Below are positions 24,387-56,488 of a stretch of 64,000 bases of DNA, in pieces. Origin of the DNA: Candidatus Micrarchaeota archaeon. Its GTDB lineage: Archaea > Micrarchaeota > Micrarchaeia > Norongarragalinales > Norongarragalinaceae. Each line of letters opens with the position of its first letter. Positions within the stretch are counted from its first letter, which is position 1. Made by a program: the position numbers and the translations under genes. Location: the NCBI GenBank assembly GCA_043822385.1, contig JBDRBT010000014.1, positions 164-64,163 of the forward strand, written 5' to 3'. The notes under the pieces were generated by a model, which was not told where the DNA came from, ran no database searches, and saw nothing but the letters and a program-made list of their open reading frames with translations.

Positions 24387-24781
24387 ACTACTTTGAATTT
24401 GAAGCCGTAAGCAATAATACCTTCGTCACCGTCTTCAAATATTTTCCTGAAAACCATTTTAACTCTAGCGTCAATAAGCACTTTTTCGTCAGGCGTTTCA
24501 ACTATTTGACTCAAAATTCGCACGCCGTTAGTTAACTCTATTATCGCTATGTAGTAAGGCGTTTCGTGCTGGAAACCAGAAGGCGCAGCGAAAACTCTAG
24601 TGAAGGAATAAATTTTTCCTTCGCGAGGCATTTGTTTTTTTATTAGCTTTCCTTTACTCCTGCAAACAGGGCAAATAGTTCTTTGCGGAAAGAAGTCGCC
24701 CTTGCAATTCACGCAGTGAGTGCCTACTAGTGAATACCGTTCCGGAATTTTCCTCCAAATTAATGGCAACGCGTTCCTCAT
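24383..24781 (-). CDS. DUF35 Zn-ribbon/OB-fold protein (thiolase-HMGCS complex subunit)
   Basis: 132 aa with CVNCKGDFFPQRTICPVCRS and an OB-fold tail. It is the last gene of the HMGCS-thiolase-DUF35 operon, with overlapping junctions. Confidence 0.85.
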   Translation of the reverse strand: MRNALPLIWRKIPERYSLVGTHCVNCKGDFFPQRTICPVCRSKGKLIKKQMPREGKIYSFTRVFAAPSGFQHETPYYIAIIELTNGVRILSQIVETPDEKVLIDARVKMVFRKIFEDGDEGIIAYGFKFKVV

Positions 24782-27069: not shown

Positions 27070-28029
27070 TTACAATCGCGCGGAGAGTTTTTCAATCATG
27101 TCTTTAGTCATTGACTGCAAGTCGTAGTCAGGCTTCCAACCCCATTCTTCTCGAGCAGCGCGGTCGTCAATAGAACTCGGCCACGAGTCAGCTATTGCTT
27201 GCCTGAAGTCAGGCTCGAAAGAAACTTTGAATTCCGGAATTTCTTTCTGAATAGCAGCAGTTATCTCAGTAGGAGAAAAACTCATTGCAGCTAAATTAAA
27301 GTCAGTCCTGTGTTTTAGTTTAGAAGAATCAGCTTCAGCTAAATCAATAATAGCCTTCAACGCATCAGGCATGTACATCATTGGCAACGTTGAATCTGAA
27401 CGCAAAAAACACTTGTACGGCTCTTTTTTTACGGCGTAATAATAAATTTCTACAGCGTAATCCGTAGTACCGCCGCCTGGAGGCGCAACGTTACTAATAA
27501 TACCTGGAAAACGCACTCCACGCACGTCAACACCGAATTTCTTGTAATAGTAATTACCGAGTAATTCGCCGTGCACTTTAGAAATACCGTACATAGTGCT
27601 TGGCTTGAGAATGGTTTCGTTAGGAGTATTGTTTCTCGGAGTTTCAGGACCGAATACAGCTATTGAACTCGGAACCATTAATCTCTCTAATTTTTTTTCG
27701 CGAGCAACTTCGAGAACGTTGTAAAGAGAAGTGTTATTCACGAAGTAAGCTAACTGCGGGTTTTTTTCTCCAACAGCAGACAAAATAGACGCTAAATGGT
27801 AAATAGTGTCAACCCCGTTTTCAGCAACGGATTTTTCAATTAATTCTTTTTTAGTAGTATCGATTACTTCACACGGTCCTGCAGCACTCCACTCGTTACT
27901 CACTTGCAAGCCTGAAGCAATCACGTTTTCCTTGCCGTACTTTTTTCGTAATTCGGGAACTAATTCAGAACCAATTTGACCAAAAGCGCCAGTAACTAAA
28001 ATTTTCTTCACTTGCAAAATGCACCCCAA
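27070..28029 (-). CDS. tdh: L-threonine 3-dehydrogenase, SDR/epimerase-like type
   Basis: KKILVTGAFGQIGSELVPELRKKYGKENVIAS, YGISKVHGELL, GGGTTDYAVEIYYYAVK, LPMMYMPDALKA. These strongly resemble the UDP-glucose-4-epimerase-like TDH family. The start is ambiguous (TTG 28029, TTG 28017 or GTG 28011, with GGGGTG nearby). Confidence 0.75.
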   Translation of the reverse strand: MGCILQVKKILVTGAFGQIGSELVPELRKKYGKENVIASGLQVSNEWSAAGPCEVIDTTKKELIEKSVAENGVDTIYHLASILSAVGEKNPQLAYFVNNTSLYNVLEVAREKKLERLMVPSSIAVFGPETPRNNTPNETILKPSTMYGISKVHGELLGNYYYKKFGVDVRGVRFPGIISNVAPPGGGTTDYAVEIYYYAVKKEPYKCFLRSDSTLPMMYMPDALKAIIDLAEADSSKLKHRTDFNLAAMSFSPTEITAAIQKEIPEFKVSFEPDFRQAIADSWPSSIDDRAAREEWGWKPDYDLQSMTKDMIEKLSARL

Positions 28030-28150
28030 GAATTTCTTAACGCATAATTCGAATAATTAAGGATAAAAAACCAATTCCATTCGCCGATTGTCGTTGTTAG
28101 TGCGTTTAATAAATTTTTGAAACACAAATACAAAGCAAGGTGATTTTATT

Positions 28151-29341
28151 TTGAGAAACTCCGCGTCTTTCCTTAAAGAAGAATACGATTCACTAGTAGC
28201 ACAAAGCTTGGATTGGAAAATAAAAAAACTCCAAGGCGCGTCTCAACCTCACTCTATAGTTGACGGAAAAAACGTGTTAATGCTTTGTTCAAATAATTAC
28301 TTGAATTTATCTAACCACCCTAAATTAAAGGAAGCTGCAATCAAGGCAGTTGAAACTCACGGTGCAGGAAGCGGGAGTGTTCGAGCAATAGCTGGAACAA
28401 TGGACTTGCACTTGCAACTAGAAAAAAAAATAGCTGAATTCAAGCACGTTGAAGCCGCTCTTTATTATCAAACTGGTTTCGCAGCTAACGCAGGATTAAT
28501 TCCGCAACTAATTGGTAAAGAAGACTTAGTAATAAGCGATTCATTGAATCACGGCTCTATTATTGACGGAGTACGGTTAACGAAGGCAGAGAGAGCGATT
28601 TACCAGCACTTGGACGTAGCTGATTTAGAAAGAGTTTTGAATGAGGCAGAAAAAAAACCAACTCCACCGCGAAGAATACTAATTATTACTGACGGAGTAT
28701 TCTCAATGGATGGCGACATCGCGCCCTTAGACAAGATTACTGCGTTAGCTGAAGAACACGGAGCAATGGTTTACGTTGATGACGCGCACGGCGACGGCGT
28801 TTTAGGAGAAAAAGGCCGCGGAATAGTTAACCACTTTCGTTTGGAAGGTAGAGTGCACGTGGAAATGGGTACTTTCTCTAAAGCGTTCGGAGTAGTTGGA
28901 GGAAGCATTGCGGGATCAAGTGACTTAGTTAATTTCGCGTTAAACAAATCCAGAACTTGGTTGTTGAGTGGTAGCGCGCCTTCAGCAACAACCGCAGCTT
29001 GCATTGCTGCTCTAGATGTTTTAGAAACAGAACCGGAACACGTTCAAAAATTGTGGGAAAACACTCGTTACTTCAAGGAACAATTAAAGCAACTTGGTTT
29101 CGATACGGGAATTTCCGAGACGCCGATTACGCCTGTAATGGTTGGCGAGAGCGCTAAAGCCAAGGAATTAAGCAACATGTTGTTCGAACTCGGTGTTTTT
29201 GCGTTACCAATCATTTTCCCAATGGTTGCTAAAGACAAAGCACGCATTCGCACAATGATGAATGCGGGACTCTCAAAGGAAGATTTGGATTTAGCGCTTA
29301 ATGCTTTCGAAAAAGCCGGAAAACAACTAGAAATAATCTAG
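28151..29341 (+). CDS. kbl: 2-amino-3-ketobutyrate CoA ligase (glycine C-acetyltransferase)
   Basis: SNNYLNLSNHP, GAGSGSVRAIAGT, DDAHGDG, GTFSKAFG (PLP lysine). 396 aa, TTG start with a GGTGA RBS. Confidence 0.85.
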   Translation: MRNSASFLKEEYDSLVAQSLDWKIKKLQGASQPHSIVDGKNVLMLCSNNYLNLSNHPKLKEAAIKAVETHGAGSGSVRAIAGTMDLHLQLEKKIAEFKHVEAALYYQTGFAANAGLIPQLIGKEDLVISDSLNHGSIIDGVRLTKAERAIYQHLDVADLERVLNEAEKKPTPPRRILIITDGVFSMDGDIAPLDKITALAEEHGAMVYVDDAHGDGVLGEKGRGIVNHFRLEGRVHVEMGTFSKAFGVVGGSIAGSSDLVNFALNKSRTWLLSGSAPSATTAACIAALDVLETEPEHVQKLWENTRYFKEQLKQLGFDTGISETPITPVMVGESAKAKELSNMLFELGVFALPIIFPMVAKDKARIRTMMNAGLSKEDLDLALNAFEKAGKQLEII

Positions 29342-29419
29342 CTAACCACTTTAACGGATGCAACAAAAAAGATAAATAACTAGAAAAAACACTTAAATCA
29401 AAGGCAAGGAGAGAAAAAA

Positions 29420-30541
29420 ATGTTGTTACCTAAAGCAAAACTAATGAACGCACAAAAAACTAAAACAATTAGAGAACAACACGAAAGCGGTGAAAAACTC
29501 ATAAGCAGTTTGTCGTTAGGAACACAACTAAAGTATTATCACTCAGTTAGGTTTCACGCGAAAAAGTGGGGTAAAGAGAACGGGATAAACATAAACAACT
29601 CAGAAGACCTGATAAGACTAAAAAGTAAAGACCCAGAATTAGGCGAAAACGCAGAATTAATCCGGCTCAGACAATTCCGCGCGAATGAAGCGCTAGGAAA
29701 ACTCGAGAAACAATTAACAGTACCACTAAAAAAAGCAAATATTATATACGAAGCTAATTTAGTCGCTCAACATGAAGATAAAGATAACGCGTTCCACGCT
29801 CAAGTTAATCATTTAAGCACGGAAGCTAGGGACTATAACTGGGAACATAATGAAAAAGACGTGAGAAATTACGCATTGAAATTGCTTGCTAAAATACAAC
29901 CAGAAAATGAAGAGCAGACTAGAGCACACGCTAACGCAATAAATGATTCGTTCTTACACAAAACTAATGCAGACGCAGCGTATACACCTACTTCGCGACT
30001 AATAGCTACTCAAGCAATCAACATACTGCTAAAACAAATAAACACTAAACACGGAAAACAATATGCGGATCCACTGCTCACACGCATTTTTGAAGGGTAT
30101 AAATCAAGCGTAAACAACGAAGACAAAGCAAAAGTAAAAAGCACGCAAACTAAAACAACCGTTTTAATGAAGAACTTCGTTAAAAACGCTAACTCTACGG
30201 AAATTAACAACATTCTGACTGCAATCAAAGAAAACGATTATCGCTTCGGCGAATCAGAAAACTACGGTAAACCCTCGCATGAAAAAGTAGATTCTTTTCT
30301 TAAAGCACTAGGCGAAGCCAGTGGAAAACACGGCTTAAAAGAAGAGTTCAAACACTCCTTGTTTGCGTTATGGAGCAAAGGCGCGTTAGGCCACCCTAAA
30401 GAAATAGAAAGCGAACTAAGGTACATGAAATACCCTTCAGGAATTAAAGAAGAAATAACCGACGAAGAAGACAAAAAAATAGCTAAGGCTTTAATGCAAA
30501 AATACGGACCTAAAAAAACAATGAAAGGCCTAGAATTCTAA
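29420..30541 (+). CDS. orphan helical Lys-rich protein
   Basis: 373-aa ORF between kbl and the HMG-CoA reductase gene. GGAG RBS. No motif recognised. Confidence 0.5.
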   Translation: MLLPKAKLMNAQKTKTIREQHESGEKLISSLSLGTQLKYYHSVRFHAKKWGKENGININNSEDLIRLKSKDPELGENAELIRLRQFRANEALGKLEKQLTVPLKKANIIYEANLVAQHEDKDNAFHAQVNHLSTEARDYNWEHNEKDVRNYALKLLAKIQPENEEQTRAHANAINDSFLHKTNADAAYTPTSRLIATQAINILLKQINTKHGKQYADPLLTRIFEGYKSSVNNEDKAKVKSTQTKTTVLMKNFVKNANSTEINNILTAIKENDYRFGESENYGKPSHEKVDSFLKALGEASGKHGLKEEFKHSLFALWSKGALGHPKEIESELRYMKYPSGIKEEITDEEDKKIAKALMQKYGPKKTMKGLEF

Positions 30542-30599: not shown

Positions 30600-31880
30600 A
30601 TGACTAGCAAAATAAAGTGGAGCGAATTCTACAAAAAGACCTTGAGCGAACGCCTCGATTACTTGAAGGAAAACACTTCACTAGACAAAGAAGACTACAC
30701 CGTTCTCGAGAAGTACGGGTCACTTGATTTTGATACTGCTAATAGAATGATTGAAAACGTAGTCGGCGTGCACGCATTGCCGTTAGGAATAGCAACTAAC
30801 TTCAAGATTAATGGCAAAGAAATGCTTGTTCCAATGGTTATTGAGGAACCGTCAGTAGTAGCTGCAGCATCTAAAATAGCTGAATTAACTCTACCGGAAG
30901 GATTCACTGCTTCAAGCACTGAACCAATAATGATTGGGCAAATTCAATTAACTCACGCAAGCGAGGATGTAGTAAAAAAAATTCTTTCAGCTAAAGAAGA
31001 ATTAATTACTCTAGCTAACTCTAAAGGCGACGTTATAATCAAGCTAGGCGGCGGAGTCAAAGACTTGGAAGCTAAAACGTTCTCAACTAGCAGGGGGGAA
31101 ATGGTTTGCATTTACTTGCACGTGGACGTTCGAGACGCAATGGGCGCTAATTTTGTTAATATGGCTTGCGAGACTCTAGCGCCTAAAATAGAAGAATTAA
31201 CAGGCGGCACTGCAGTTTTACGAATCATTTCCAATTTAGCAACGAAACGCTTAGTAAAAGCAAAAGCAACGTTCTCTAAGAAAGCATTGGAAGAATCATT
31301 CAAAGGAAAACCATTCACTGGAGAAGAAATAATAGAAAAAATTCTTGATGCTCACGCGTTTGCTGAAGTAGATCCTTACCGCGCAGTAACCAGCAACAAG
31401 GGAATAATGAACGGCATTGACGCAGTAGTTATTGCTACAGGTAATGATTGGAGAGCAGTTGAAGCTGGAGCGCATTCTTTCGCTTCCTTTTCAGGCCAGT
31501 ACAAGCCCTTAACTAAATACTACAAAAACAAGGAAAGTAATTTGGTTGGGGAAATCGAATTACCAATGCAAGTTGGTTTGGTTGGGGGAGCAACGCGCAC
31601 TCACCCTTTAGCTAAGATTGCTTTAAAAATGCTTGGCGTGAAAACAGCTAACGAATTAGGGGAAGTAATTGCTTGCGTTGGACTAGCGCAAAACGTGGCT
31701 GCGCTACGCGCTTTGAGTACTGAAGGAATTAGCCGCGGGCACATGCGTTTGCACGCTAACAACATTGCGGTTCTCGCAGGAGCAACCGGAGAACAAATTC
31801 AAATCATAGCGAAAAAACTGTATGAAGAAAAAAACGTTTCACTAAACCGCGCTAAAGAATTAATGAAGGAATTAAAGTAG
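30600..31880 (+). CDS. hmgA: HMG-CoA reductase, class II
   Basis: 426 aa. VIEEPSVVAAASK, DAMGANFVNMACE, GNDWRAVEAGAH, VGLVGGATRTHP. The size and EEPSVVAA motif point to class II. Confidence 0.9.
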   Translation: MTSKIKWSEFYKKTLSERLDYLKENTSLDKEDYTVLEKYGSLDFDTANRMIENVVGVHALPLGIATNFKINGKEMLVPMVIEEPSVVAAASKIAELTLPEGFTASSTEPIMIGQIQLTHASEDVVKKILSAKEELITLANSKGDVIIKLGGGVKDLEAKTFSTSRGEMVCIYLHVDVRDAMGANFVNMACETLAPKIEELTGGTAVLRIISNLATKRLVKAKATFSKKALEESFKGKPFTGEEIIEKILDAHAFAEVDPYRAVTSNKGIMNGIDAVVIATGNDWRAVEAGAHSFASFSGQYKPLTKYYKNKESNLVGEIELPMQVGLVGGATRTHPLAKIALKMLGVKTANELGEVIACVGLAQNVAALRALSTEGISRGHMRLHANNIAVLAGATGEQIQIIAKKLYEEKNVSLNRAKELMKELK

Positions 31881-31987
31881 CGTTCGCACATATTTTTAAT
31901 ATCTTGAGTTTGCTTCATCACTTACAGAAAAAAACACAGGCTCATATCTCGAATAAAAAATATTTTAAAAAAAACAGGGGGTAAAAA

Positions 31988-32947
31988 ATGAAGAAAAAAG
32001 TTGTTTCAGTCGGGTTTCCCACCATCCCAATTATTTTCGTTGCTTCAGTTGACGACAAACGCGTTCCTTTGCACGACACAATGGGACTGGCAGTAACAGA
32101 CTTAAATGAAGAAACGCGAAGCGAAACCACAATCACGGTACAACCCAAAGAAGAAGGCATAATTTTTCTTTTAGAAGGAAAACAAGTAGACCCCCGCAGA
32201 ACAACCGACATAGAAAAAATAGCTAGATTATTCATGCAAACCGCGGGAAAAGACGTGGGCTTGAAAATGGAGTCAAACAACTACAAAATTTACTCTGGCT
32301 CAAGCGATTCAGGCGCTGCAGCGCTAGTAGTAGGCTTAAATGAGTTGTTTGAAACTAATTTCGACAAGCAAAAACTAGCTGAACTAGGAAACCAAATTTC
32401 AGAAAGCGCTATTCGAAGCGTTTACGGCGGGCTGAACATGTATGAAGTATCTACAGGCACGCCGCACGGTTTACAACTAGCTTCAGAAAAAGAGTTAAAG
32501 GACATAAGAATCTTCGCTATGGGTTTTGATTACGAAACGCGCGTTTCAGCGCAGGAAATATTCGATATTTGCAAAGCCAGTCCTTACTGGCAAATGCGTT
32601 TAGAACGAGTGCCTTACTGGGTTAGCGAAGTTAAACAAGCTCTAGAAAAAAACGATTGGAAGCGGTTGTTCACTAAAGCTGAAGAAAACTGCGCCAACGC
32701 GCACTACTTAATAGAAAACGGGGGAAAACGCTGCAGGCGGAAAGAAATGATGAACGCAGTAATAGACGTGGAAGAAATTCGGTCAGCAGGATTGCCGGTT
32801 TACTGGACTGCTGGCGGGGGCCGCGTCATAAATTCGTTCAGCTGGGGGCCTCAAGCAGAACAAGTTTTAGCTGAATTAAAGAAACGCGGGCAAAAACCAA
32901 CTGAATACAAAGTAGCTAGTGGTGCCAAAGTAATAGAGGTAAGTTAA
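31988..32947 (+). CDS. MDD-fold GHMP-family kinase-like protein, candidate mevalonate 3-kinase
   Basis: 319 aa. VGFPTIPIIFV...RVPLHDTMGLAV...RSETTI, YSGSSDSGAAALVVGL, ISESAIRSVYGGL, WTAGGG. It shows diphosphomevalonate-decarboxylase-family motifs but is short and lacks the NIAxIKYWGK-type N-terminus, as I recall for Thermoplasma mevalonate 3-kinase. Confidence 0.55.
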   Translation: MKKKVVSVGFPTIPIIFVASVDDKRVPLHDTMGLAVTDLNEETRSETTITVQPKEEGIIFLLEGKQVDPRRTTDIEKIARLFMQTAGKDVGLKMESNNYKIYSGSSDSGAAALVVGLNELFETNFDKQKLAELGNQISESAIRSVYGGLNMYEVSTGTPHGLQLASEKELKDIRIFAMGFDYETRVSAQEIFDICKASPYWQMRLERVPYWVSEVKQALEKNDWKRLFTKAEENCANAHYLIENGGKRCRRKEMMNAVIDVEEIRSAGLPVYWTAGGGRVINSFSWGPQAEQVLAELKKRGQKPTEYKVASGAKVIEVS

Positions 32948-33876
32948 TGAGGGAAATAAAAATTCACAGCGTATTATGGGATTTCGGAGGACCAATACGA
33001 GATTCACGAATAGCTTTAAACGATGCGCACAACGCGTCGGTAGAAAAACTATTAGGCCGCAAACTCGATGAAAAAGAAAAATTCAAAGCAGACGACACGT
33101 GGAAAGTAATGGGGCTACCCAATTTTTCTCACGAAAGTGAAATGATTCCAGCGCTTTGGGCAATTAAAATAAAAGAAATAAAAGAAGGCGTAAAAGTACC
33201 GCCACTAACTCAAATACTTAAAATGGAAGACTCCGCCGGATTCATTAGAGAAATAATGAAGCGGTATAGTTTACTAGTAAAAGAAAAAAACGGCGAATAC
33301 GAGAAAACTAAAAAATTAAAAAGAGAAATAGACCGGTGGGGCAAGGTATTCAAAGCCGCATTGCAAGACAAAGAAAAAGCGCCGGTAACAAATGGGACCA
33401 GGGAAGCTATGGAAATATTAACTAAATTAGGAATAAAACAAGCAATAGTAACTAACGCTAGAGAAGACAGCGGAAAAGAATACATACAGACACACGTATT
33501 GCCTGCTGGCAACTGGCCGATAGTAGGCAGTGAAACATTCAAAGAACTAAAAAAACCACACCCCTACCCGTTATTAGCGGGTTTACATCTTTTACACAAG
33601 AGAACCACGCCTCCAACACCCCGGGACGTTAAAGAAAATGGAATAAACCTATTTAAAGAAATAAAAGAATTAACCGAAGGATCTGTTTACATTGGTGACA
33701 CTCCTGACGACGTTAGAGCAGCAAACGAAGCAGGGTTTATTTCAGTCGTTATGACTGAAGGCATGGGCAACTTACGGCTCTTAAAAGCCGCCAAACCAGA
33801 CTTAATAGTTAAGAATCCTGAGGAACTAGCAGAAATACTAAAAAAAAATAACGGGAAACTAAGAATAAACAGGTGA
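32947..33876 (+). CDS. HAD-superfamily protein 1 (motif I degenerate: DFGG)
   Basis: Motif I VLWDFGGPI, motif II AIVTNA, motif III KKPHPYP, motif IV VYIGDTPDDVRAANEAG. There is a large cap insert between motifs I and II. TAATG overlap with the upstream gene. Confidence 0.7.
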   Translation: MREIKIHSVLWDFGGPIRDSRIALNDAHNASVEKLLGRKLDEKEKFKADDTWKVMGLPNFSHESEMIPALWAIKIKEIKEGVKVPPLTQILKMEDSAGFIREIMKRYSLLVKEKNGEYEKTKKLKREIDRWGKVFKAALQDKEKAPVTNGTREAMEILTKLGIKQAIVTNAREDSGKEYIQTHVLPAGNWPIVGSETFKELKKPHPYPLLAGLHLLHKRTTPPTPRDVKENGINLFKEIKELTEGSVYIGDTPDDVRAANEAGFISVVMTEGMGNLRLLKAAKPDLIVKNPEELAEILKKNNGKLRINR

Positions 33877-33881
33877 CGAAA

Positions 33882-34718
33882 ATGTTTTACGCAGAAAAAG
33901 AATCTCTCTTACTTGCTACGGGATTAAGTTTGACACAAATAGCGGAAATAATTTGTGATTCACCAAAAGAAAAAACAATTGAAGAAAGATTGCAAACAAA
34001 ATCTAAAAAATACTTAGACCGGTACTTAATCATTAAAGAGTACAAGGAATTAACTAAAAACGAAAAAGTAGTTGAAGCTATAGTCCCCGTAATAGGCGGC
34101 TTGCCGTGCACTGGCAAAACAACTATTGCACGAGAACTAGGCGTACGCCTTGGTTTCGGCACGATAATCAGCGGAGATACAGTACGCGAATCACTCAGGG
34201 AACTAGTTTCTGAAGCAGAACACCCCGAATTCTTTACCAGCGTCTACGACTCGTGGAAATTCTTCGGAAACGAGCCGACAAAAGAAAACGTAATCGCAGG
34301 CTACCGCAAGCAAGCGGAAATTATTTCTCGCGTAATGCAGAAAATAATGTGGCGGGCGGCAATAAAAGACGGGGAAAACATGGCGATTGAGTACTTACAC
34401 TTTCTCCCTGAACTAATAGATAAGGAAATACTAGAACACCCGAGCATAATTCCCATAGTACTCGCAGTGCCAGACGTGGAATTACACAAAACTAACGTGA
34501 GAAAAAGAACGTACTTCCACATGAAAGGCGGGTGGCAAAGACTCTTGGATAACCTACCCCAGTACAGAATAATGCACGATTACCAAACAGCACAAGCAAA
34601 AAAATACGGAATCCCTGTAATCGAGTATTTAGGAAACACAGACGAAGTAATTGAACAAGTTCTCGATATTGTTTTCGAACGAATAAAAAAACTAAACAAA
34701 ACCAGTGGAAAAAAATGA
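33882..34718 (+). CDS. P-loop kinase of the 2-phosphoglycerate-kinase (COG2074) family, candidate mevalonate-3-phosphate 5-kinase
   Basis: VIGGLPCTGKTTIARELGVRLGFGTIISGDTVRESLRELV matches the COG2074 pattern. ATG 33882 is preceded by AGGTGA (33871-33876). The track start, GTG 33873, is the alternative. Confidence 0.55.
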   Translation: MFYAEKESLLLATGLSLTQIAEIICDSPKEKTIEERLQTKSKKYLDRYLIIKEYKELTKNEKVVEAIVPVIGGLPCTGKTTIARELGVRLGFGTIISGDTVRESLRELVSEAEHPEFFTSVYDSWKFFGNEPTKENVIAGYRKQAEIISRVMQKIMWRAAIKDGENMAIEYLHFLPELIDKEILEHPSIIPIVLAVPDVELHKTNVRKRTYFHMKGGWQRLLDNLPQYRIMHDYQTAQAKKYGIPVIEYLGNTDEVIEQVLDIVFERIKKLNKTSGKK

Positions 34719-35650
34719 CTCTATTAATACTAGACATTGATGAAGTTTTTCGCCACATGACTAAAGCAAACGCAACAAACAACGCTTTAAAGGAATACGG
34801 CGTCGAAATAAAGAATTTTGATGACAAAACCAGGGATGAAATACTTAATTTTGGGCGGGAAAAAAACAAGTTTTTCACTGAACGCGGACAAACTATGGGC
34901 ACGCTTTACGCGCTAGCTAAAAACAAAACAAACATTAAAGAATTACAGGAAATGGCTAAAAACAGCCCGAGTAAAGCAGAAGAAATAATAGAAACCGCTC
35001 GAAAAAACGTAAAGAACGAATTAACGCCGGAATTCGAAAAAGAACTAGGACAACGCTTCAAGGAACACAACTACCCCATGGAAGAAAAAATCCTAAAAAG
35101 CATAGACTTCGAGCACAAAAACGCTCTACAACGGTTGTTAAAAACGCATGACGCAATTTTTGTTACTAGCTCAGATTCAGCGTCAACGCGCGCCTGGCTC
35201 AACACGCACGGTTTCGAACAAATACCGTTAATCGGCAGGGAAGACGTTCCTCTTGACACTGAAGGAAAACCTAAAACAAAACCCGCACCCCATGCTTACT
35301 GGAAAGCACTAACTAAAAAGAGTTCGACCGGCTTGCTTATTGACGCGCCTAAAGAAGTGATTATAGTAGGCGACGCGAAAGGCGATATGGATGCGGCAGT
35401 AAACACTGTAAACGCGTTGAAAAAAAGGTTTAAACAAAACAAAATCAAACTAACAAAATGCCTGGTGTTAAGTGGAAAAACAGAATCAGAATTAAAGAGT
35501 ATTGCAACTGCAAAACCAACTCATGTTTTCAAGGATTTTACTGATTTTGCTGAACACACAGATAATCTAGAAAAACTGAAAACAATGCAAGCAGAAGGAG
35601 CTTCATTCAAAATAAGCTCAAAAGCAGTGGAAAGAATAATAGAAAGGTGA
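34715..35650 (+). CDS. HAD-superfamily protein 2
   Basis: Motif I LILDIDEVF, motif II AIFVTSSD, motif III GKPKTKPAP, motif IV IIVGDAKGDMDAAVN. ATGA overlap with the upstream gene. Confidence 0.7.
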   Translation: MTLLILDIDEVFRHMTKANATNNALKEYGVEIKNFDDKTRDEILNFGREKNKFFTERGQTMGTLYALAKNKTNIKELQEMAKNSPSKAEEIIETARKNVKNELTPEFEKELGQRFKEHNYPMEEKILKSIDFEHKNALQRLLKTHDAIFVTSSDSASTRAWLNTHGFEQIPLIGREDVPLDTEGKPKTKPAPHAYWKALTKKSSTGLLIDAPKEVIIVGDAKGDMDAAVNTVNALKKRFKQNKIKLTKCLVLSGKTESELKSIATAKPTHVFKDFTDFAEHTDNLEKLKTMQAEGASFKISSKAVERIIER

Positions 35651-35654
35651 GAAA

Positions 35655-36797
35655 ATGATGTTGCAACCAGAATTAGAAAAACAAACAGAAGAAACTACTC
35701 GCGCGATAATAAGCCGATTAAAAGAAATTGGTTGGACTGAACCAACTAAAACAACACCTAGCGCAACAGTAGACGGCGAAGCGTTAGTGGAAGCAAACTC
35801 TATTCTAGGAATAGAAAAATACTTGGGAATGGTTGACAAGAAACTGAGAATAGCTTACTTTTCTTCAATAAAATTAACAAATAACTCGACGGTTACTAGA
35901 ACGTACGTAAAGTTTGACGCTTCATTACAAGAAGACCTAGTATACATCGCTGGAAAAGAAGCTGGAGAAAAAGAAAGGAACAGAATACTAACCGCAGTAA
36001 ACGCTTACCGCGAATTAACCGGAATCAACAGCAAAATTTTATACGCATCTCAAAACACCTTCAAAGGCGGAAACGAAGGAAAAGGCTTAGGCACTAGTGC
36101 GGCGGCGGGCGCAGCCCTAGGCGCAGCACTAGTTCAAGCATCAATGCCTAAGCTTTTCAAGGAAACTTACTTTGTTGAATCAATAGCCCGGCTAGTAGCT
36201 GGCTCTGCCCCTCAATCAATAGCAGGCGGATTTTCAGTATGGCTATCAGATGCATCATACTTAAAAAAACCAAACGAATCTTACAGCGTTCGAATAGACA
36301 AGGGCGATTTCGACGTAAAACTAGTCGTCATCCCTATTCCTCAAGTTGCTAAAACTGAAGACGCGCACGAAGCAGCAGTCAAATCACCTCATTACTTAGA
36401 GTGGGTTAAGAAAAAGTGTTTCACAGTACCTCACTTGATGGAAGCAATAATCAACAAGGACTTGCAAGCAATAGGCGAACACGCTGAAGAAGACTCTCAG
36501 TGGCTAAACAAAATTATTACTACGGGCGGCGGAATAAACAACTGGGTTGAAGACACGGAATCTCTAAGACAAGCAGTAATAAACTTAAGGAAAAAACAAG
36601 GCTTGTTAGCTTACTACTCAATGGATACCGGGCCGTCAATAGCGGTTTTAACGAACGCGCATGACGCGGAAGCAGTGAAAAACGGTTTGGAAGAAGCACT
36701 AGACCGGAAATACGCGGGAAAAGCATTTATTGCTGAAATGGGTGGCGGACCAAAAATCCTAGATCCCAGCAAAAAAACTGAATTAATACGTACGTGA
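35655..36797 (+). CDS. diphosphomevalonate-decarboxylase-family protein, candidate mevalonate-3,5-bisphosphate (or phosphomevalonate) decarboxylase
   Basis: 380 aa. ANSILGIEKYLGMVDKKLRIAYFSSIKLT (cf. NIAxIKYWGKxD...SxSxTL), GKGLGTSAAAGAALGAAL, ARLVAGSAPQSIAGGFSVW, YYSMDTGPSIAVL. AGGTGA RBS. Confidence 0.65.
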   Translation: MMLQPELEKQTEETTRAIISRLKEIGWTEPTKTTPSATVDGEALVEANSILGIEKYLGMVDKKLRIAYFSSIKLTNNSTVTRTYVKFDASLQEDLVYIAGKEAGEKERNRILTAVNAYRELTGINSKILYASQNTFKGGNEGKGLGTSAAAGAALGAALVQASMPKLFKETYFVESIARLVAGSAPQSIAGGFSVWLSDASYLKKPNESYSVRIDKGDFDVKLVVIPIPQVAKTEDAHEAAVKSPHYLEWVKKKCFTVPHLMEAIINKDLQAIGEHAEEDSQWLNKIITTGGGINNWVEDTESLRQAVINLRKKQGLLAYYSMDTGPSIAVLTNAHDAEAVKNGLEEALDRKYAGKAFIAEMGGGPKILDPSKKTELIRT

Positions 36798-37561
36798 GCA
36801 CATTGATCACTACCCTTGTTTTTGACGTGGACGGCATTTTACGAAATTCAGGACCAGCAATACACTATTTCCTCAACGAAACACTCAAAAAAGAAGTTGG
36901 GTGGGAAATTCCTTTCGGAGAAAAAGAGCACTTAGCAATTAGGGGTAACTGGAAAGAATTCTCCAACATAAAAACTACGCTTCCAGTAGTATTTGCTGTA
37001 AAAAAAACAGGTTTAAATGTAAAAAAAATTCTTGAGGCCAAGAATGCTAAAGAAACGTTAATGCAAATATACAAAGAAAACCCAACAGACGAAAAAACTA
37101 TTGAAACCCTTTACCAGGTTTTCATGAAACAATATACTAGCTTAGATAACGCATCGCTAAAAGCAGTAAACCCAATTCCAGACTGTTTTAAAGCGGTGCA
37201 ACAATTAGCAAAAAAATACAAACTAGCTTGTTTTTCAGACAGCAGTTCCAAACTCCATGAAGCTTGGCTAACTTATTGGAACGCCAAGCACTTTTTTCAA
37301 GCGAACATAGGGATCGAAGAAAGCAAAGCTAAAAAACCAGACCCAAAAGGGCTTGAACTAGTTAGCGCCGAGCTGAAAACTAAACCTGGAGAAATGGCTT
37401 ATATCGGCGATAGCACGATAGATATTGAAACTGCACGAGCGTTTGGTTGTAAAAGCATCGCGATCAGTACGGGTTTTGCAAAAAAAAGCGAATTATTAAA
37501 AAACAAGCCAAATTTCTTTTACGAAAACTTGCAAGAATTAGTTAACGCTAATCTCGGGTAA
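36794..37561 (+). CDS. HAD-superfamily protein 3 (canonical DxDG)
   Basis: Motif I LVFDVDGIL, motif II LACFSDSS, motif III KAKKPDP, motif IV AYIGDSTIDIETARAFG. GTGA overlap with the upstream gene. Confidence 0.75.
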   Translation: MSTLITTLVFDVDGILRNSGPAIHYFLNETLKKEVGWEIPFGEKEHLAIRGNWKEFSNIKTTLPVVFAVKKTGLNVKKILEAKNAKETLMQIYKENPTDEKTIETLYQVFMKQYTSLDNASLKAVNPIPDCFKAVQQLAKKYKLACFSDSSSKLHEAWLTYWNAKHFFQANIGIEESKAKKPDPKGLELVSAELKTKPGEMAYIGDSTIDIETARAFGCKSIAISTGFAKKSELLKNKPNFFYENLQELVNANLG

Positions 37562-38363
37562 TAGTCGTTCCCATCACTTTTTTACCAAGCAAGGCGTCTT
37601 CAAAACGGCCTGGCGCGTCGCCGTTAATTATTTGCACTTCAACACCCATTTGCGCTACGTCAATCAAGCGCTCGAGCTTGTGAAGCATTCCGCCAGTAAC
37701 GTCTTTGCCTGCAGCGCCCTTTACGTTGTATTTCATTTCCTGAAAACGAGCGCGGTTCAATACAGCGATAGGCGCCTCGCCTTTAGCTGGAGGAAAGTTT
37801 TCGAACACGCCGTCAACATTACCAACCATTATTACGCGAGCAGGCTTCAATTCCTTGCTTAAGTAAAACAAGATTTCGTCAGCAGAAATAATCGAGCAAC
37901 CCTGTTTCTCGTCGAGAACAGCGTCGCCGAAAGGAACAGGCACGAAACCCTCCTTCAAAAAGAGTTTTAACGCACTCAAATCCCAGTTCACAATCCTGCT
38001 GTCGCGAGCAATTACGCCCGCAGAAGTTTGTAACGAAACCGCGTGCAAGCCAGCTTTCAACAAATTATCAATAACAATCCGGTTTATTGTGCTCGCGGCA
38101 TCCTGCACTTTAGCAAAACCAAGCTTGCTGTCCGGCTGAATAAACCCTTTATGTGTTTCAAACTCGTGAGCATGTTGGTGAGGAAAAGAACCACCGCCAT
38201 GCGCTAAAACTAATTGCCCGGGATTTTTCTTGGTGAATGCAAGCGCTTCCTTGCCTAAACGCGCTATAGTTCCGGGTTTTGCAGTAAACGCCATAGCCTT
38301 GTCGGTAATAACGCTTCCACCAAATTTAACCAAAACCAAGTTCTTCAAAAAATACACACTCAA
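37548..38363 (-). CDS. ipk: isopentenyl phosphate kinase
   Basis: Amino-acid-kinase fold. LVKFGGSVITDK, LAHGGGSFPHQHA, VTGGMLHKL. 271 aa. Convergent 14-nt overlap with HAD-3. Confidence 0.85.
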   Translation of the reverse strand: MSVYFLKNLVLVKFGGSVITDKAMAFTAKPGTIARLGKEALAFTKKNPGQLVLAHGGGSFPHQHAHEFETHKGFIQPDSKLGFAKVQDAASTINRIVIDNLLKAGLHAVSLQTSAGVIARDSRIVNWDLSALKLFLKEGFVPVPFGDAVLDEKQGCSIISADEILFYLSKELKPARVIMVGNVDGVFENFPPAKGEAPIAVLNRARFQEMKYNVKGAAGKDVTGGMLHKLERLIDVAQMGVEVQIINGDAPGRFEDALLGKKVMGTTITRD

Positions 38364-38437: not shown

Positions 38438-39850
38438 ATGAAAACGCCTTTTCTCAAAATTAAACCAAATTCTCTCGAAAGCGTTGTTTTCAAAGTAATG
38501 GGCACAACTGATTTCGAAACGCCCTTAGACCACACTACAGTTCACCCTAAGGTTTGGCGCGTAATCAACAACAACCGGCCCGAAGGAATACACAAACACG
38601 GCGCTAATCCACCAGGTAGAATGAATCACAATATTCTAAAACTACCTGTAGACGTTTTTGAAGGAAAAAGAAAAAACGAGTTAGATTTAATAAAAAAAAC
38701 AATCAAAAAAACTAAAGAAGTTAAAGAATACTTGGAAATAAACCCCGAAGAAAAAAAGAGCTTAAACCGAGTTATTAACCACGCTATTTTCCTTCACACA
38801 CTAAAATCACCTTATTACTGGAGGACGTCACTTACCGCTGACCCCAAGTACCATAAATCGATTTACACTGAAGCTCAAAACATTCCGGCGGAAATGAACC
38901 GACACAATGCCCGCGAGCTAGCGAAGTTCGCTCACGAAAAACTAAGTGCGGGGCAAAAAGAATTCATATTTATGGATACGGGAACTGGTTTGGGCACTAC
39001 AACTCGTTTTGTTCTGGAAGAAATTCAAAAAATAAATCCAGACCACTTGAAGAAAATCACAGTAGTACTTAACGACATTGATAAAAAAACCTTAACGCAA
39101 GTAGGGGACAAATTAAAACAAGATTTCGGAGTCAAATTAGAACTACTTCCTTCAACTTTCTATGTTGCAATTCAAGCATTAAAAACAAAAGGAATGAAAG
39201 AAGCGTGGAGAATGGCGGATGAAGAAGTTTACGAAAAAATGCAGAAACTAAAAGGAAGACTAGATGCGTATACGTCCTTTGCTTCCTGGAACAACTTACC
39301 TCACTCGGAAATAGCTTTCAAAACAGTTAAAGCACTATTGAAAAAAGGGGGTAAAGCGTTTTTGGGTGATTGGGGGGGCTATGACATTACTCAAAAAGAA
39401 TTCACTCAAAACGAACTAGACCGAAAAATAAACGCAGAAGGAAACGTTACAGTACGAAAAAATATCAAGGGCTTCTGGTGGTTTTGGCTTCACCACCACG
39501 GCTGCATTGATTTGAATACGAACCAACAAAAATGGTGGCGCAAACTAGAACGCCACATAGACACTGCAGACAAAGTAAATGTTTTAAACTGGTTCAACTC
39601 AAACTACAAAAAAATGGAGGCAGAACGAAAAAAACGCGGGAGAAAATACACTTTCTTTGGTTACGCTAACCGAGCTTACCGCACTCCAGAAATGGTTCGA
39701 AACGCAGCAGTAAAAGCAGGTTTGAAAGTAAAGTATGTTGGTTATCCGCTAGCAAACAAGAAAACAACTGAAAACGGCAGCATCACGTACGAACCGCACA
39801 ATCCTCGCTTTGTCACTTGGCACGCGATACTTGAAAAAAGGTCAGGTTAA
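38438..39850 (+). CDS. orphan protein with class I SAM-methyltransferase-like core
   Basis: 470 aa. FIFMDTGTGLGTTTRFVLEEI resembles SAM-binding motif I, and VVLNDID resembles motif II. Long unique N- and C-terminal regions. Confidence 0.45.
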   Translation: MKTPFLKIKPNSLESVVFKVMGTTDFETPLDHTTVHPKVWRVINNNRPEGIHKHGANPPGRMNHNILKLPVDVFEGKRKNELDLIKKTIKKTKEVKEYLEINPEEKKSLNRVINHAIFLHTLKSPYYWRTSLTADPKYHKSIYTEAQNIPAEMNRHNARELAKFAHEKLSAGQKEFIFMDTGTGLGTTTRFVLEEIQKINPDHLKKITVVLNDIDKKTLTQVGDKLKQDFGVKLELLPSTFYVAIQALKTKGMKEAWRMADEEVYEKMQKLKGRLDAYTSFASWNNLPHSEIAFKTVKALLKKGGKAFLGDWGGYDITQKEFTQNELDRKINAEGNVTVRKNIKGFWWFWLHHHGCIDLNTNQQKWWRKLERHIDTADKVNVLNWFNSNYKKMEAERKKRGRKYTFFGYANRAYRTPEMVRNAAVKAGLKVKYVGYPLANKKTTENGSITYEPHNPRFVTWHAILEKRSG

Positions 39851-39888: not shown

Positions 39889-40446
39889 ATGAAATTAGGC
39901 TTGGTTTTGGCGGCAGACACTATTGTTGCAGACAAAAAACGAAAGGAAGTCGCTGACGTCGAAACAGCGCTATCAAACAAACTACAAGAAATACGAAACA
40001 ACAACTCAGTGACAAAACGCTTAGCGCTCGAACGAGTAGCTAAAATGAAGGCAAACAACGAAATCACGAAAATAAAGAAAAAGAAAATACAGAACCCTGA
40101 AAAAGGATTCATTCAAGCTGCTTATGCCCGGCTGGAAAAAGCACTTGAATTATACGAAAACAAAAAAATAGACAAGATAATAGTTACTTGCGACCACCCC
40201 ATAGGCTTCCCTCACGAGGGGCCCAGAATGCATGAAATCAGTGCTGCGTGGTTAAGGAAAAACGGCGTGCCTGAAAAAGACGTTCTGCGCGTAACTAACT
40301 CGCGGTGGACACTTGAAGAAATAGCCGGAATGAAACAACACATAAACGAACAAAAACCGGAAGAAGTGCACGTGATTACTTCTGATTTTCACGTTGAGCG
40401 AGCGCTAGAGTCATTCAAGCAAGCATTCCGCGAGTCAAAACAATAG
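39889..40446 (+). CDS. DUF218 (YdcF/SanA-like) domain protein, possibly 3'-truncated by frameshift
   Basis: KIIVTCDHP..., EISAAWLRKNGVPEKDVL, SRWTLEEIAGM, VHVITSDFHVERA fit DUF218. An alternative frame continues for 31 more codons after an A-run. Confidence 0.55.
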   Translation: MKLGLVLAADTIVADKKRKEVADVETALSNKLQEIRNNNSVTKRLALERVAKMKANNEITKIKKKKIQNPEKGFIQAAYARLEKALELYENKKIDKIIVTCDHPIGFPHEGPRMHEISAAWLRKNGVPEKDVLRVTNSRWTLEEIAGMKQHINEQKPEEVHVITSDFHVERALESFKQAFRESKQ

Positions 40447-41637: not shown

Positions 41638-42645
41638 ATGAGTCAGATAAAAAAGCGGAAAGAAGAACACGTTGAAATAACACTCAAGAAAGACGTGGAC
41701 TACAAACTAAAACGCACTGGCTTTAATGACGTAGAATTATTGTATTACGCGTTGCCTGAAATTAATTACAAGGAAGTAAGCACGCAAACCAACTTTTTAG
41801 GATTCAAGCTGAAAGCACCACTATTAATTTCTTCAATGACTGGAGGCTATGAAAAAGCAACGAAAATAAATCGCGATTTAGTTACTGCAGCGCAAGAAGA
41901 AGGAGTAATGGTTGGTTTGGGAAGCATGCGCGCAATGCTCAAGCACCCTGAGCTCTGGAAAACGTATTATTTCAAGAAGGAAGCGCCTAAAGCAATTGTT
42001 TTCGCTAACTTCGGCGCAGTGCAATTACTAGAGTATTCGCCAAAGCAAGTTAGTGACGCAGTCAAGAAAATCGAGGCAGATGGTTGCTTTATTCACTTGA
42101 ATGCGTTGCAGGAAGTAATCCAGCCAGAAGGAGACAAAAACTGGCGCAACGTCCTTCAGAAAATAAGCAAGTTGTGCGACCATTCCGACTTCCCGATAAT
42201 AATTAAAGAAGTAGGAGCAGGAATAAACGGGGAAATAGCGCGAGAACTCCAAGAAGCGGGAGTAAAAGCAATTGACGTTGCTGGAGCAGGAGGCACTAGT
42301 TGGACTGGCATTGAAGTACACAGGAACGGTGCTCCGGAAGGAAGTTATTACTGGGACTTCGGCATTCCAACTCTAAGTGCGTTAAGACAATGCAAGAAAA
42401 CATGCTCGCTTCCATTAATAGCATCAGGCGGAATTCGAAGCGGACTAGATTGCGCTAAAGCAATTCGATTCGGCGCTGAATTATGCGGTGCAGCTAAACC
42501 CTTCTTGAAAGCGCAAGCCAAAAAAGGAAAAAAAGGAGTAGTGGAAGAAATTCAGTCATTCAAACGCGGTTTGGAAATAGCAATGTTCTTAACTAGAAGC
42601 AAAAACCTAGACCAATTACAAAGAGCTAAACTATTAACAGACTAA
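41638..42645 (+). CDS. fni: isopentenyl-diphosphate delta-isomerase, type 2 (FMN-dependent)
   Basis: KRKEEHVEI, LLISSMTGG, IIKEVGAGI, DVAGAGGTSW, ASGGIRSGLD. 335 aa. Confidence 0.9.
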   Translation: MSQIKKRKEEHVEITLKKDVDYKLKRTGFNDVELLYYALPEINYKEVSTQTNFLGFKLKAPLLISSMTGGYEKATKINRDLVTAAQEEGVMVGLGSMRAMLKHPELWKTYYFKKEAPKAIVFANFGAVQLLEYSPKQVSDAVKKIEADGCFIHLNALQEVIQPEGDKNWRNVLQKISKLCDHSDFPIIIKEVGAGINGEIARELQEAGVKAIDVAGAGGTSWTGIEVHRNGAPEGSYYWDFGIPTLSALRQCKKTCSLPLIASGGIRSGLDCAKAIRFGAELCGAAKPFLKAQAKKGKKGVVEEIQSFKRGLEIAMFLTRSKNLDQLQRAKLLTD

Positions 42646-56296: not shown

Positions 56297-56338
56297 AAAC
56301 GCTAGGTTTTTAAACTCGGTTCGGCACGATAATTACGT

Positions 56339-56447: not shown

Positions 56448-56488
56448 CATCTTTCTCATTATTAAAGTTTTTAAGCACTCTAGCGCTA

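Follow-up and report, generated by a model that had tools for sequence, protein, structure and literature searches.

A Micrarchaeota gene block in which three HAD-family genes alternate with genes resembling those of the Thermoplasma-type mevalonate pathway

A six-gene block of kinase, decarboxylase and HAD genes

The stretch analysed here (the window) comprises 64,000 nucleotides of contig JBDRBT010000014.1 from a Candidatus Micrarchaeota archaeon (DPANN; assembly GCA_043822385.1), a very small archaeon of symbiotic type. Between positions 31988 and 37561 its forward strand carries six co-directional open reading frames (ORFs), in which three proteins resembling enzymes of the Thermoplasma-type lower mevalonate pathway alternate with three members of the haloacid dehalogenase (HAD) superfamily. 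An annotation made earlier from the DNA letters alone, hereafter the sequence-only reading, had located all six at these coordinates, and they are indeed present there. The first, O1 (31988-32947, 319 aa), resembles mevalonate-3-kinase (M3K). It is followed by HAD-1 (32947-33876, 309 aa); by O3 (33873-34718, 281 aa, probable start at the ATG at 33882), a long-form P-loop kinase of COG2074 that resembles mevalonate-3-phosphate (M3P) 5-kinase; by HAD-2 (34715-35650, 311 aa); by O5 (35655-36797, 380 aa), a decarboxylase of the mevalonate diphosphate decarboxylase (MDD) family; and by HAD-3 (36794-37561, 255 aa). The genes either overlap or are separated by 0-4 nt, with no gap above 5 nt. All five junctions, described in that reading as translationally coupled, read as it gave them: TAATG between O1 and HAD-1 (32945-32949), AGGTGA-N5-ATG between HAD-1 and O3 (33871-33884), where the HAD-1 stop falls within AGGTGA, ATGA between O3 and HAD-2 (34715-34718), AGGTGA-N4-ATG between HAD-2 and O5 (35645-35657) and GTGA between O5 and HAD-3 (36794-36797). 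The only space for the putative promoter of the block is an AT-rich spacer of 107 nt (31881-31987, forward strand) that separates gene 1 from the HMG-CoA reductase (HMGR) gene and has a Shine-Dalgarno-like GGGGGT 6 nt 5' of the ATG. We infer that the block is one transcription unit, encoding the Thermoplasma-type lower mevalonate pathway in a DPANN-type form.

O1 contains the Pfam domains MVD-like_N and M3K_C. Its best NCBIfam model is that of mevalonate-3-kinase (NF040848), at 130.2 bits and short of the equivalog cut-off of 440, and its best match in the PDB is the M3K of Thermoplasma acidophilum, Ta1305 (4rkp). The catalytic Asp is kept by decarboxylating MDD homologues and is missing from M3K (PMC9254496). 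In O1 this residue is replaced, with WTAGGG aligning to FTMDAG of diphosphomevalonate decarboxylase (DMD) and to VTGGS of Ta1305, so that O1 is an MDD homologue without the catalytic Asp, as is characteristic of the kinase-only M3K. The M3K-type motifs GSSDxGAA and SESAxRS are also present.

For O3, which has the Walker A motif GGLPCTGKT, a sequence search of the PDB gave no match. In NCBIfam it scores 138.7 bits with the model for 2-phosphoglycerate kinase (NF003259, cut-off 343) and 129.8 bits with that for M3P 5-kinase (NF008996, cut-off 250). The former function, which the sequence-only reading had named as one that would count against its assignment, thus scores slightly higher, with neither model at its cut-off. 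Because both scores lie below the cut-offs the profiles cannot separate the two kinases, but the genomic context, namely an M3K-like neighbour, can distinguish them: a homologue of O3 adjoins a homologue of O1 in 42 loci. The loci compared, denoted with an L, number 85, of which 80 came from a pattern scan for O1 homologues with one genome per GTDB species and five from exact-protein look-ups; L083 is GCA_900174565.1 and L013 is Ca. Micrarchaeum harzensis A_DKE.

O5 (Pfam MVD-like_N) belongs to a DPANN-specific clade resembling the decarboxylase of mevalonate-3,5-bisphosphate (MBD). O5 retains the catalytic Asp, in SMDTGP, and the Lys, in EKYLG, and several of its motifs are MBD-like: EKYLG where DMD has KYWGK, a P-loop reading KGLG, and P..KTEDAH where the loop SKKVSSRSGM stands in DMD. 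The motifs EKYLG, KGLG and P..TxxAH are common to MBDs with biochemical proof (PMC9254496, PMC5177888) and to the Thermoplasmatales-like MBDs of acidophilic Micrarchaeota. MBDs are further characterised by a retained Asp/Lys/Arg decarboxylation triad and by the loss of two nearly invariant adenine-binding residues (PMC5177888), which from the S. epidermidis sequence numbering are presumably S94 and N96. On both counts O5 differs. It reads ASQNT where DMD has ESENY (S94/N96) and the P. torridus enzyme (PtoMBD) has NIR, keeping the S-x-N of the ATP-dependent DMD and of M3K, and the position of the triad Arg (R144 in S. epidermidis) is a Gln in O5 and in the long-type decarboxylase of L083 (L083:11738-12928) and a Ser in those of L006, L007, L018, L022 and L026. 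Because S-x-N is kept and Gln stands at the triad Arg, we have filed O5 as MBD-like and not as an MBD equivalog. The NCBIfam scores are 143.7 bits with the phosphomevalonate decarboxylase model and 135.5 bits with the MBD model, whose cut-off is 560. It is probable that O5 works like an MBD without being a member of the equivalog, and it may still bind ATP or ADP. An evolution of MBD from phosphomevalonate decarboxylase has been proposed (PMC9254496); the long-type DPANN decarboxylase may be an evolutionary intermediate between the two, in which case an MBD-like O5 that retains the adenine site could be the one missing from that proposal.

The sequence-only reading had matched the three non-HAD proteins to the established Thermoplasma-type families. 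At the family level this stands, O1 matching M3K and Ta1305, O3 matching COG2074 and O5 being an Asp-containing MDD homologue. At the equivalog level it does not, since all three score below the cut-offs, and the match is therefore one of family-level homology plus context.

Many loci of the Micrarchaeota, and of Iainarchaeota and Aenigmatarchaeota type, have O1, O3 and O5 as a contiguous triad, and Heimdallarchaeia and Bathyarchaeia have the O3-O1 pair only. In the Thermoplasmata M3K stands alone in 12 of 12 loci, with no P-loop kinase (PLK) or decarboxylase (MDC) within 10 kb, in agreement with the earlier remark that the genes are dispersed in Thermoplasma acidophilum. The Altiarchaeota have the O1 homologue beside mevalonate kinase (MVK), with phosphomevalonate dehydratase nearby. 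Clusters of type A, among them that of the window, have a long MBD-like decarboxylase of 370-410 aa and no MVK; in those of type B the decarboxylase is short and exceeds the cut-off of 171 bits in the DMD model (TIGR01240, 269-297 bits), and there is an MVK, sometimes also a GHMP kinase resembling phosphomevalonate kinase (PMK).

The three HAD proteins and their linkage to the pathway genes

The Pfam matches of ORFs 2, 4 and 6 are to HAD_2, Hydrolase and Hydrolase_like. HAD-3 (HAD_2, 91 bits) is a canonical HAD-IA protein resembling phosphoglycolate phosphatase (PGP) with its motifs intact (FDVDG, S, KKPDP and GDSTID). HAD-2 is the most divergent of the three and its Pfam matches are weak, yet all four motifs are present (DIDEV, VTSSD, KTKPAP and GDAKGD). 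The DxD of motif I is DID in HAD-2, DVD in HAD-3 and DFG in HAD-1, where motif I reads D-F-G-G with Gly at Asp+2, while the nucleophile Asp, the Thr, the Lys and the motif IV acids are kept across the HAD-1 orthologues. This DxGG is conserved in orthologues and related HADs (P0123, L083, L087, L021, L022 and L026), and the Asp+2 position is Asn in the L018 HAD and Glu in the Iainarchaeota-type HAD. Motifs II (Ser/Thr), III (Lys) and IV (acidic pair) are present in all three window proteins, which share the signature D-x-(D/G)-(G/E)-x-x-R with a conserved Arg at nucleophile+6. HAD-2 and HAD-3 should be Mg-dependent phosphoryl-transfer enzymes, for neither has lost the nucleophile Asp, Asp+2, Ser/Thr, Lys or the motif IV acids. 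HAD-1, without the Asp+2 general acid/base, should bind phosphate and Mg and be a poor conventional (alkyl-phosphate) phosphatase.

In AlphaFold2 (AF2) models of HAD-2 (pLDDT 88.8) and HAD-1 (pLDDT 79.6) the core is Rossmannoid, and between motifs I and II ~135-150 residues form an insert made entirely of helices. This insert would be an enlarged C1 cap, about twice the size that is usual in the family. In HAD-2 it consists of eight helices (~135 aa) and the protein also has a C-terminal extension; HAD-1 carries a further insert after motif III. Foldseek gave PGP-like 2hsz as the best match for HAD-2, and the BT2127 pyrophosphatase and PGP-like structures for HAD-1, with a probability of 1.00 to many HAD-IA structures (TM-score 0.5-0.7), including L-2-haloacid dehalogenases and beta-phosphoglucomutase (bPGM)-like proteins. 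As these matches are all generic to HAD-IA, no substrate can be deduced from them for HAD-1 or HAD-2. The PDB sequence matches of HAD-3 are likewise to HAD-IA proteins of the PGP-like kind.

None of the three HADs passes a curated NCBIfam model, those for PGP, PpaX and bPGM included. The PGP model (cut-off 225) gives 81 bits with HAD-3, for which it is the best, 49 with HAD-1 and no match with HAD-2, and the PpaX and BT2127 models give 65 bits against 218 and 30 against 245. The sequence-only reading had offered bPGM-like phosphomutases, moving phosphate between the 3-OH and 5-OH of mevalonate, as one role for the HADs. This idea gains no specific support, as the bPGM-family models TIGR01990 and TIGR02009 give 34.1 bits (cut-off 189.4) and 44.2 bits (cut-off 153.4) with HAD-3 and no match with HAD-1 or HAD-2. 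No hydrophobic or transmembrane segment was found in any of the three, which are thus predicted to be soluble. Membrane lipid-phosphate phosphatases (PgpC-like) were considered as candidates and rejected for this reason.

Profile comparisons with hhalign aligned the three HADs over their full length, caps included, as paralogues of one HAD-IA subfamily, with probabilities of 99.9% for HAD-1/HAD-3 (E 5e-32), 98.5% for HAD-2/HAD-3 (2e-15) and 94.6% for HAD-1/HAD-2 (6e-8). HAD-3 is of the type found in Aenigmatarchaeota-type clusters, and HAD-1 and HAD-2 are confined to a narrow clade of Micrarchaeota. A word-indexed search of 5.8 billion proteins returned one relative of HAD-1 and, for HAD-2, only the query. 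Five relatives of HAD-2, three of them marginal, emerged when 1.84 billion representatives were scanned in full with HMMER, and two of the marginal ones (P0126 and P0127) lie on short contigs without pathway genes; an exact look-up of the HAD-2 gene in the contig index gave no record. Identity to the L083 counterparts is ~51% for HAD-1 and 37% for HAD-2, and 62-74% for the enzymes. The paralogy, the tiny families of HAD-1 and HAD-2 and a divergence faster than that of the enzymes argue that the HADs are, to judge from their sequences, lineage-specific, fast-evolving duplicates of a cluster-associated HAD and not ancient partners. From their mutual divergence and large caps the sequence-only reading had deduced old, specialised partners; the large cap is borne out in the HAD-1 and HAD-2 models, the age is not.

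To find HAD-like ORFs in the related loci we used iterated profiles built from the cluster HADs. Across the 85 loci, which are mutually non-independent, the HAD-like share is 33/174 (19%) within 300 bp of the lower-pathway genes, 8/103 at 0.3-1 kb and 6/622 (1%) at 2-11 kb. A HAD lies within 1 kb in three of the five loci of the window clade, all four Iainarchaeota-type loci, three of the four type A loci of Aenigmatarchaeota type, three of the eight type B loci and 13 of the 21 Altiarchaeota loci; none does in the Thermoplasmata (0/12), in the Thermoplasmatales-like Micrarchaeota (0/15) or in Heimdall/Bathyarchaeia (0/11). As a negative control only, and not a survey of orthologues, we took the generic HAD-IA loci that a search with the HAD-3 family brought up from metagenomes (20-44% identity), and 0 of 27 among the matches listed was near a pathway gene. 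Linkage to HADs in related genomes, the absence of which would have told against the earlier proposal, therefore recurs in Micrarchaeota, Iainarchaeota-type, Aenigmatarchaeota-type and Altiarchaeota clusters. By clustering and profile comparisons the HADs of the linked groups fall into several families, of which f40 is assigned to the HADs with moderate support (hhalign 70-94%). One shared ancestral recruitment is possible.

Only one other contig, L083, has the order M3K, HAD-1, kinase, HAD-2, decarboxylase; there HAD-1 is split by a frameshift and HAD-3 is missing. In L087/L088 the order is decarboxylase< kinase< M3K> HAD-1> <HAD-2, and in the closest relatives of O1 (L084/L085, 80% identity) the kinase follows M3K directly with no HAD between. 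The start/stop overlap of M3K and HAD-1 is conserved in three contigs (window, L083 and L087), and HAD-3 relatives come after the decarboxylase in L018, L022 and L026. Most relatives carry the M3K-kinase-decarboxylase triad without a HAD. These arrangements indicate that HADs are conserved as cluster members in some lineages and that the one-to-one pattern is not conserved, so that the alternation stressed in the sequence-only reading is no general feature of such clusters.

Two further families from these loci could not be confirmed as HADs, there being no significant Pfam or PDB match for either and an hhalign probability of at most 20%. Members of f109 (L022:13802-14617 and L026:11603-12424, both on the reverse strand) read SFEG or SFDG, with Ser at the position of the nucleophile Asp. 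Those of f70 (L006:11767-12726, L007:11882-12736 and L025:11863-12450) have LDIDGV and a C2-like layout, and sit between kinase and decarboxylase in the operon slot that HAD-2 has in the window.

Possible roles of the HADs

The explanation that we favour, tentatively and with a probability of roughly 45%, is that the block encodes an M3K-type core route together with accessory HADs, directed at phosphomevalonates and dispensable for the core route. From homology and context, O1 would phosphorylate the 3-OH of mevalonate, O3 would add the 5-phosphate and O5 would remove the 3-phosphate and CO2 to give isopentenyl phosphate, which isopentenyl phosphate kinase (IPK) would convert to isopentenyl diphosphate (IPP). 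The IPK gene (37548-38363, reverse strand) lies convergent to the block where the sequence-only reading had put it and shares 14 nt with the 3' end of HAD-3, and its product passes the NCBIfam model IPPK_Arch (NF040647) with 218.6 bits against a cut-off of 120. No MVK, GHMP-type PMK or phosphomevalonate dehydratase (AcnX) was found within the 64-kb window, and its three HAD-like ORFs all lie inside the six-gene operon.

The HADs would have arisen by lineage-specific duplication of a cluster-associated HAD and would act as phosphatases or phosphotransferases on mevalonate 3-phosphate, 5-phosphate or 3,5-bisphosphate, or on isopentenyl phosphate. In this way they could set the flux, clear dead-end or mis-phosphorylated intermediates, or serve in salvage, with HAD-1 having a binding, regulatory or unusual transfer role alongside its coupled kinase. 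We regard them as accessory, not as obligatory steps, because most relatives, close ones included, have the triad without HADs. Small acidic phosphoesters are what the nearest families act on, and the additional, conserved Arg would be in keeping with an anionic substrate, which fits phosphomevalonates or isopentenyl phosphate.

A number of observations weigh against this explanation. The matches of O1, O3 and O5 fall far below the equivalog cut-offs (130 against 440, 130 against 250 and 135 against 560 bits), O3 scores marginally higher as a 2-phosphoglycerate kinase, and O5 has both the S-x-N of adenine-binding homologues and Gln for the triad Arg. The absence of MVK is a statement about the 64-kb window, and an MVK gene could sit elsewhere in the genome. 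As to the HADs, their linkage is patchy, being absent in L001, L039, L042, L050 and all Thermoplasmatales-like clusters, as well as between M3K and kinase in the closest relatives of O1, and HAD-1 and HAD-2 have diverged from their L083 counterparts further than the enzymes have. Moreover, the G, N or E at Asp+2 in several cluster HADs, and the Ser in place of the nucleophile in the unconfirmed f109, fit relaxed or non-catalytic roles too.

Patchy linkage, with positions that vary among close relatives, would also be seen if the HADs were hitch-hikers, that is housekeeping phosphatases (for phosphoglycolate, sugar phosphates or nucleotides) or a pyrophosphatase that came to lie in the operon through the compact genomes and fluid gene order of DPANN. 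HAD-IA is a large and promiscuous family, the best profiles are the generic PGP or PpaX models, both below cut-off, and the fast divergence and the tiny families of HAD-1 and HAD-2 point in the same direction. Chance residence does not, however, sit well with the enrichment of HADs around lower-pathway genes (~19% against 1%), nor with the 0/27 of the generic HAD loci among the matches listed. Separately grouped HAD families adjoin M3K-like genes in four DPANN groups, albeit possibly by one ancestral recruitment, all three HAD-like genes of the window are in one operon with overlapping start and stop codons, and the M3K/HAD-1 overlap is conserved in three contigs. It would seem unlikely that the HADs are hitch-hikers.

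That same overlap, kept in the window, L083 and L087, could instead reflect a physical partnership, in which some of the HADs, above all HAD-1, are phospho-metabolite-binding subunits, chaperones or scaffolds of the adjacent enzyme, for instance HAD-1 with the M3K-like kinase. The one-to-one alternation in the window and L083 would suit such non-catalytic or regulatory partners, as would the many cluster HADs with G, N or E at Asp+2 and the Ser at the nucleophile in the unconfirmed f109. The catalytic residues of HAD-2 and HAD-3 are, on the other hand, complete and HAD-1 keeps the nucleophile, Thr, Lys and motif IV acids; no HAD-enzyme fusion occurs among 120 O1 homologues by Pfam annotation, and in most relatives the enzymes are without HADs. 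We consider such a role quite unlikely.

More speculative proposals give the HADs a place in the pathway itself. A fifth version of the mevalonate pathway, combining catalytic HADs (a phosphomevalonate mutase, or a phosphatase or phosphotransferase specific for mevalonate-3,5-bisphosphate) with an O5 of intermediate type and HAD-1 as dedicated partner of the 3-kinase, appears improbable. Very improbable is a new variant in which HADs are integral steps, either as a mutase taking the 3-phosphate to the 5-phosphate via the 3,5-bisphosphate, or as a bisphosphate phosphatase feeding a phosphomevalonate decarboxylase-like O5 that binds ATP or ADP. Phosphomutases exist within HAD-IA, the family-specific Arg six residues past the nucleophile would suit an anionic substrate, and O5 keeps S-x-N and scores higher with the phosphomevalonate decarboxylase model than with that for MBD (143.7 against 135.5 bits). 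This has to be set against the scores of the bPGM and PGMB models, far below cut-off (34 against 189 and 44 against 153 bits), the many clusters with the same long-type decarboxylase and no HAD (L039, L042 and L050), the several derived motifs of real MBDs in O5 and the lesser parsimony of a mutase route compared with M3K, M3P 5-kinase and MBD in succession. Just as improbable are downstream helpers, pyrophosphatases or prenyl-phosphate phosphatases serving the wider isoprenoid and lipid supercluster, for while there are structural and profile matches to the pyrophosphatases BT2127 and PpaX, a prenyl synthase and an IPP isomerase in the window, and a HAD between GGPP synthase/IPP isomerase and the M3K-like gene in Altiarchaeota, the cut-offs of the PpaX and BT2127 models are missed by a wide margin (65 against 218 and 30 against 245 bits) and the HADs, which have no membrane segments, are embedded among the kinase and decarboxylase genes and not beside the prenyltransferase.

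Isoprenoid synthesis underlies archaeal membranes, and DPANN archaea are usually thought to depend on host lipids. If accessory HADs do act on phosphomevalonates, they would form the first dedicated phosphatase or phosphotransferase layer of the mevalonate pathway, which could amount to flux control, metabolite repair or a new step, and would have a bearing on the extent to which DPANN make isoprenoids of their own and regulate them. The enzymes also have a practical interest in engineered routes to isoprenol and isobutene, in which kinase/phosphatase pairs are employed.

Neighbouring genes, related clusters and known systems

The six genes lie within an isoprenoid supercluster of 20 kb that holds a prenyl synthase, thiolase, HMG-CoA synthase, HMGR, the block itself, IPK and a type 2 IPP isomerase (IDI2). 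HMGR, directly upstream and co-directional (30600-31880, forward strand), is of class II (NAD-type) and scores 422.8 bits with TIGR00532 (cut-off 260). Further upstream on the reverse strand are the polyprenyl (geranylgeranyl diphosphate, GGPP-type) synthase (22377-23423; Pfam polyprenyl_synt, 227 bits), a DUF35-type protein (24383-24781, family f38), the thiolase (24778-25944, f37) and HMG-CoA synthase (25944-26984, f36). The last three families are shared with L007, L019 and L025, where they are beside HMGR, and the L083 homologues of the upper-pathway genes match thiolase, zf-ChsH2 and HMG_CoA_synt in Pfam. Beyond IPK come a protein of 470 aa resembling S-adenosylmethionine (SAM)-dependent methyltransferases (38438-39850, forward strand; family f13, weak Methyltransf_23 match), directly 3' of it a DUF218-domain protein (39889-40446), and IDI2 (41638-42645, forward strand; Pfam FMN_dh), of an FMN-dependent family (f7) also beside IPK in L006, L007 and L026. 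Three genes without an evident link to isoprenoids fill 27070-30541, between HMG-CoA synthase and HMGR: an NAD-dependent epimerase/dehydratase (27070-28029, reverse strand), a class I/II aminotransferase of the 2-amino-3-ketobutyrate ligase/AONS type (28151-29341) and a protein of 373 aa with no family match (29420-30541). The wider window is ordinary archaeal chromosome, with ribosomal proteins, aminoacyl-tRNA synthetases and a lone 5S rRNA gene (56337-56450, 67 bits); no tRNA genes were found in the 64 kb.

Methyltransferase-like proteins of f13 (330-470 aa, weak matches to Methyltransf_23/31) adjoin the M3K-like gene in Micrarchaeota, Iainarchaeota-type and Aenigmatarchaeota-type clusters. 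Members other than that of the window are L006:6691-8031, L007:7630-9033 and L084:2499-3845 and those of L021, L022 and L027-L030; the family lies within 5 kb of M3K in eight loci and is also present in L084/L085. It has no significant PDB or NCBIfam match, the PDB search giving a marginal one only (E 0.045). A second, small methyltransferase lies 3' of the decarboxylase in L083 (13023-13673), and NUDIX hydrolases, IDI1-type or generic, are found at the edges of DPANN mevalonate clusters (L081:6403-6795, L083:14475-14987, L022:9486-9989, L026:6579-7082 and L039).

In type B clusters (L081:6866-12591, L027-L030, L008 and L021) the M3K-like and COG2074 genes share one operon with a complete classical route. 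Of the scores checked, MVK passes TIGR00549 in L081 and DMD passes TIGR01240 in L081 and L029, and L081 also has the PMK-like GHMP kinase. To explain this pairing one would need two routes or another role for the M3K/COG2074 pair. Conserved in the Altiarchaeota loci L044-L065, for example L062:9300-12160, is the gene order IDI2< GGPP synthase< CBS-domain protein> canonical HAD-IA< M3K-like> MVK>, with an AcnX-type phosphomevalonate dehydratase and IPK nearby, which shows an M3K-like gene coexisting with the archaeal-type pathway. A mosaic is seen in L002 (3126-8306), where an O1 homologue 71% identical to that of the window is found with a Thermoplasmatales-like MBD-type decarboxylase (AKGLGESAAVAA, no S-x-N), a short-form kinase and, at the contig end, a partial HAD-3-like gene, so that components of the cluster have seemingly been exchanged independently. 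The genes of the cultivated A_DKE (L013), of the same phylum as the window, are Thermoplasmatales-like, with 386 bits for the MBD model and 237 bits for the M3P 5-kinase model, and fit the horizontal transfer that Krause et al. 2022 reported (PMC8975820).

To our knowledge four variants of the mevalonate pathway have been described, none with a HAD component. The sequence-only reading had likewise named no described variant with HADs, and we found no contrary paper in the searchable literature, nor any description of HADs in a mevalonate gene cluster; in such searches 'HAD' is confounded with the English 'had', and a narrower search was also empty. Homologues of M3K, M3P 5-kinase and MBD have already been reported in Micrarchaeota, Aenigmatarchaeota, Altiarchaeota and Heimdallarchaeia (PMC8975820, and a survey of archaeal metagenome-assembled genomes, PMC11052028), and neither paper mentions HADs.

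Viewed as HAD-IA proteins of COG0546 type (Gph, PpaX, BT2127 and bPGM-like), the window HADs have the expected Rossmannoid core and helical C1 cap, both seen in the models of HAD-1 and HAD-2, together with motifs II-IV and a motif I akin to DxDGxxxDS, of which HAD-2 and HAD-3 keep the DxD. Unlike these families they pass no curated model, have a cap about twice the usual size (~135-150 aa) and an Arg at nucleophile+6, and are set apart further by the Gly at Asp+2 and the insert after motif III in HAD-1 and by the C-terminal extension of HAD-2. Amongst DPANN clusters, the type B operons (MVK, PMK-like kinase and DMD; L008, L021, L027-L030 and L081) have in common with the window the M3K-like/COG2074 pair, the methyltransferase family and sometimes HAD-like genes, whereas the window has a long MBD-like decarboxylase and no true DMD or MVK. 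In contrast to the Thermoplasmatales-like clusters of A_DKE type (HAD 0/15), the cluster of the window comes from a deeper clade of DPANN, with HADs, the long MBD-like decarboxylase and a complete upper pathway with HMGR.

The closest known system is the Thermoplasma-type pathway (Ta1305, Ta0762, Ta0893 / P. torridus MBD, and the IPK Ta0103), which has the same set of protein families as the window. O1 is like Thermoplasma M3K in having no catalytic Asp and in the common P-loop and SESA motifs, O5 is like the Thermoplasma-type MBD in keeping the catalytic Asp, EKYLG, KGLG and TxxAH (PMC5177888, PMC9254496), and IPK is present, with no mevalonate kinase found in the 64-kb window. The window proteins differ in sharing only ~25-30% identity with the Thermoplasma-type enzymes and missing the equivalog cut-offs of M3K, M3P 5-kinase and MBD, in the long form of the COG2074 kinase (~280-300 aa), and in an O5 that keeps S-x-N and is without the triad Arg. 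In contrast to the Thermoplasmata, the genes are clustered and translationally coupled, with three HADs interleaved. That Micrarchaeota and other DPANN carry these pathway genes is already known; what appears new from the searchable literature is the recurrence, in the lower-mevalonate clusters of DPANN, of HAD genes whose Asp+2 is often non-canonical, the alternating six-gene form found in the window and the mixed character, between MBD and phosphomevalonate decarboxylase, of the long-type decarboxylase.

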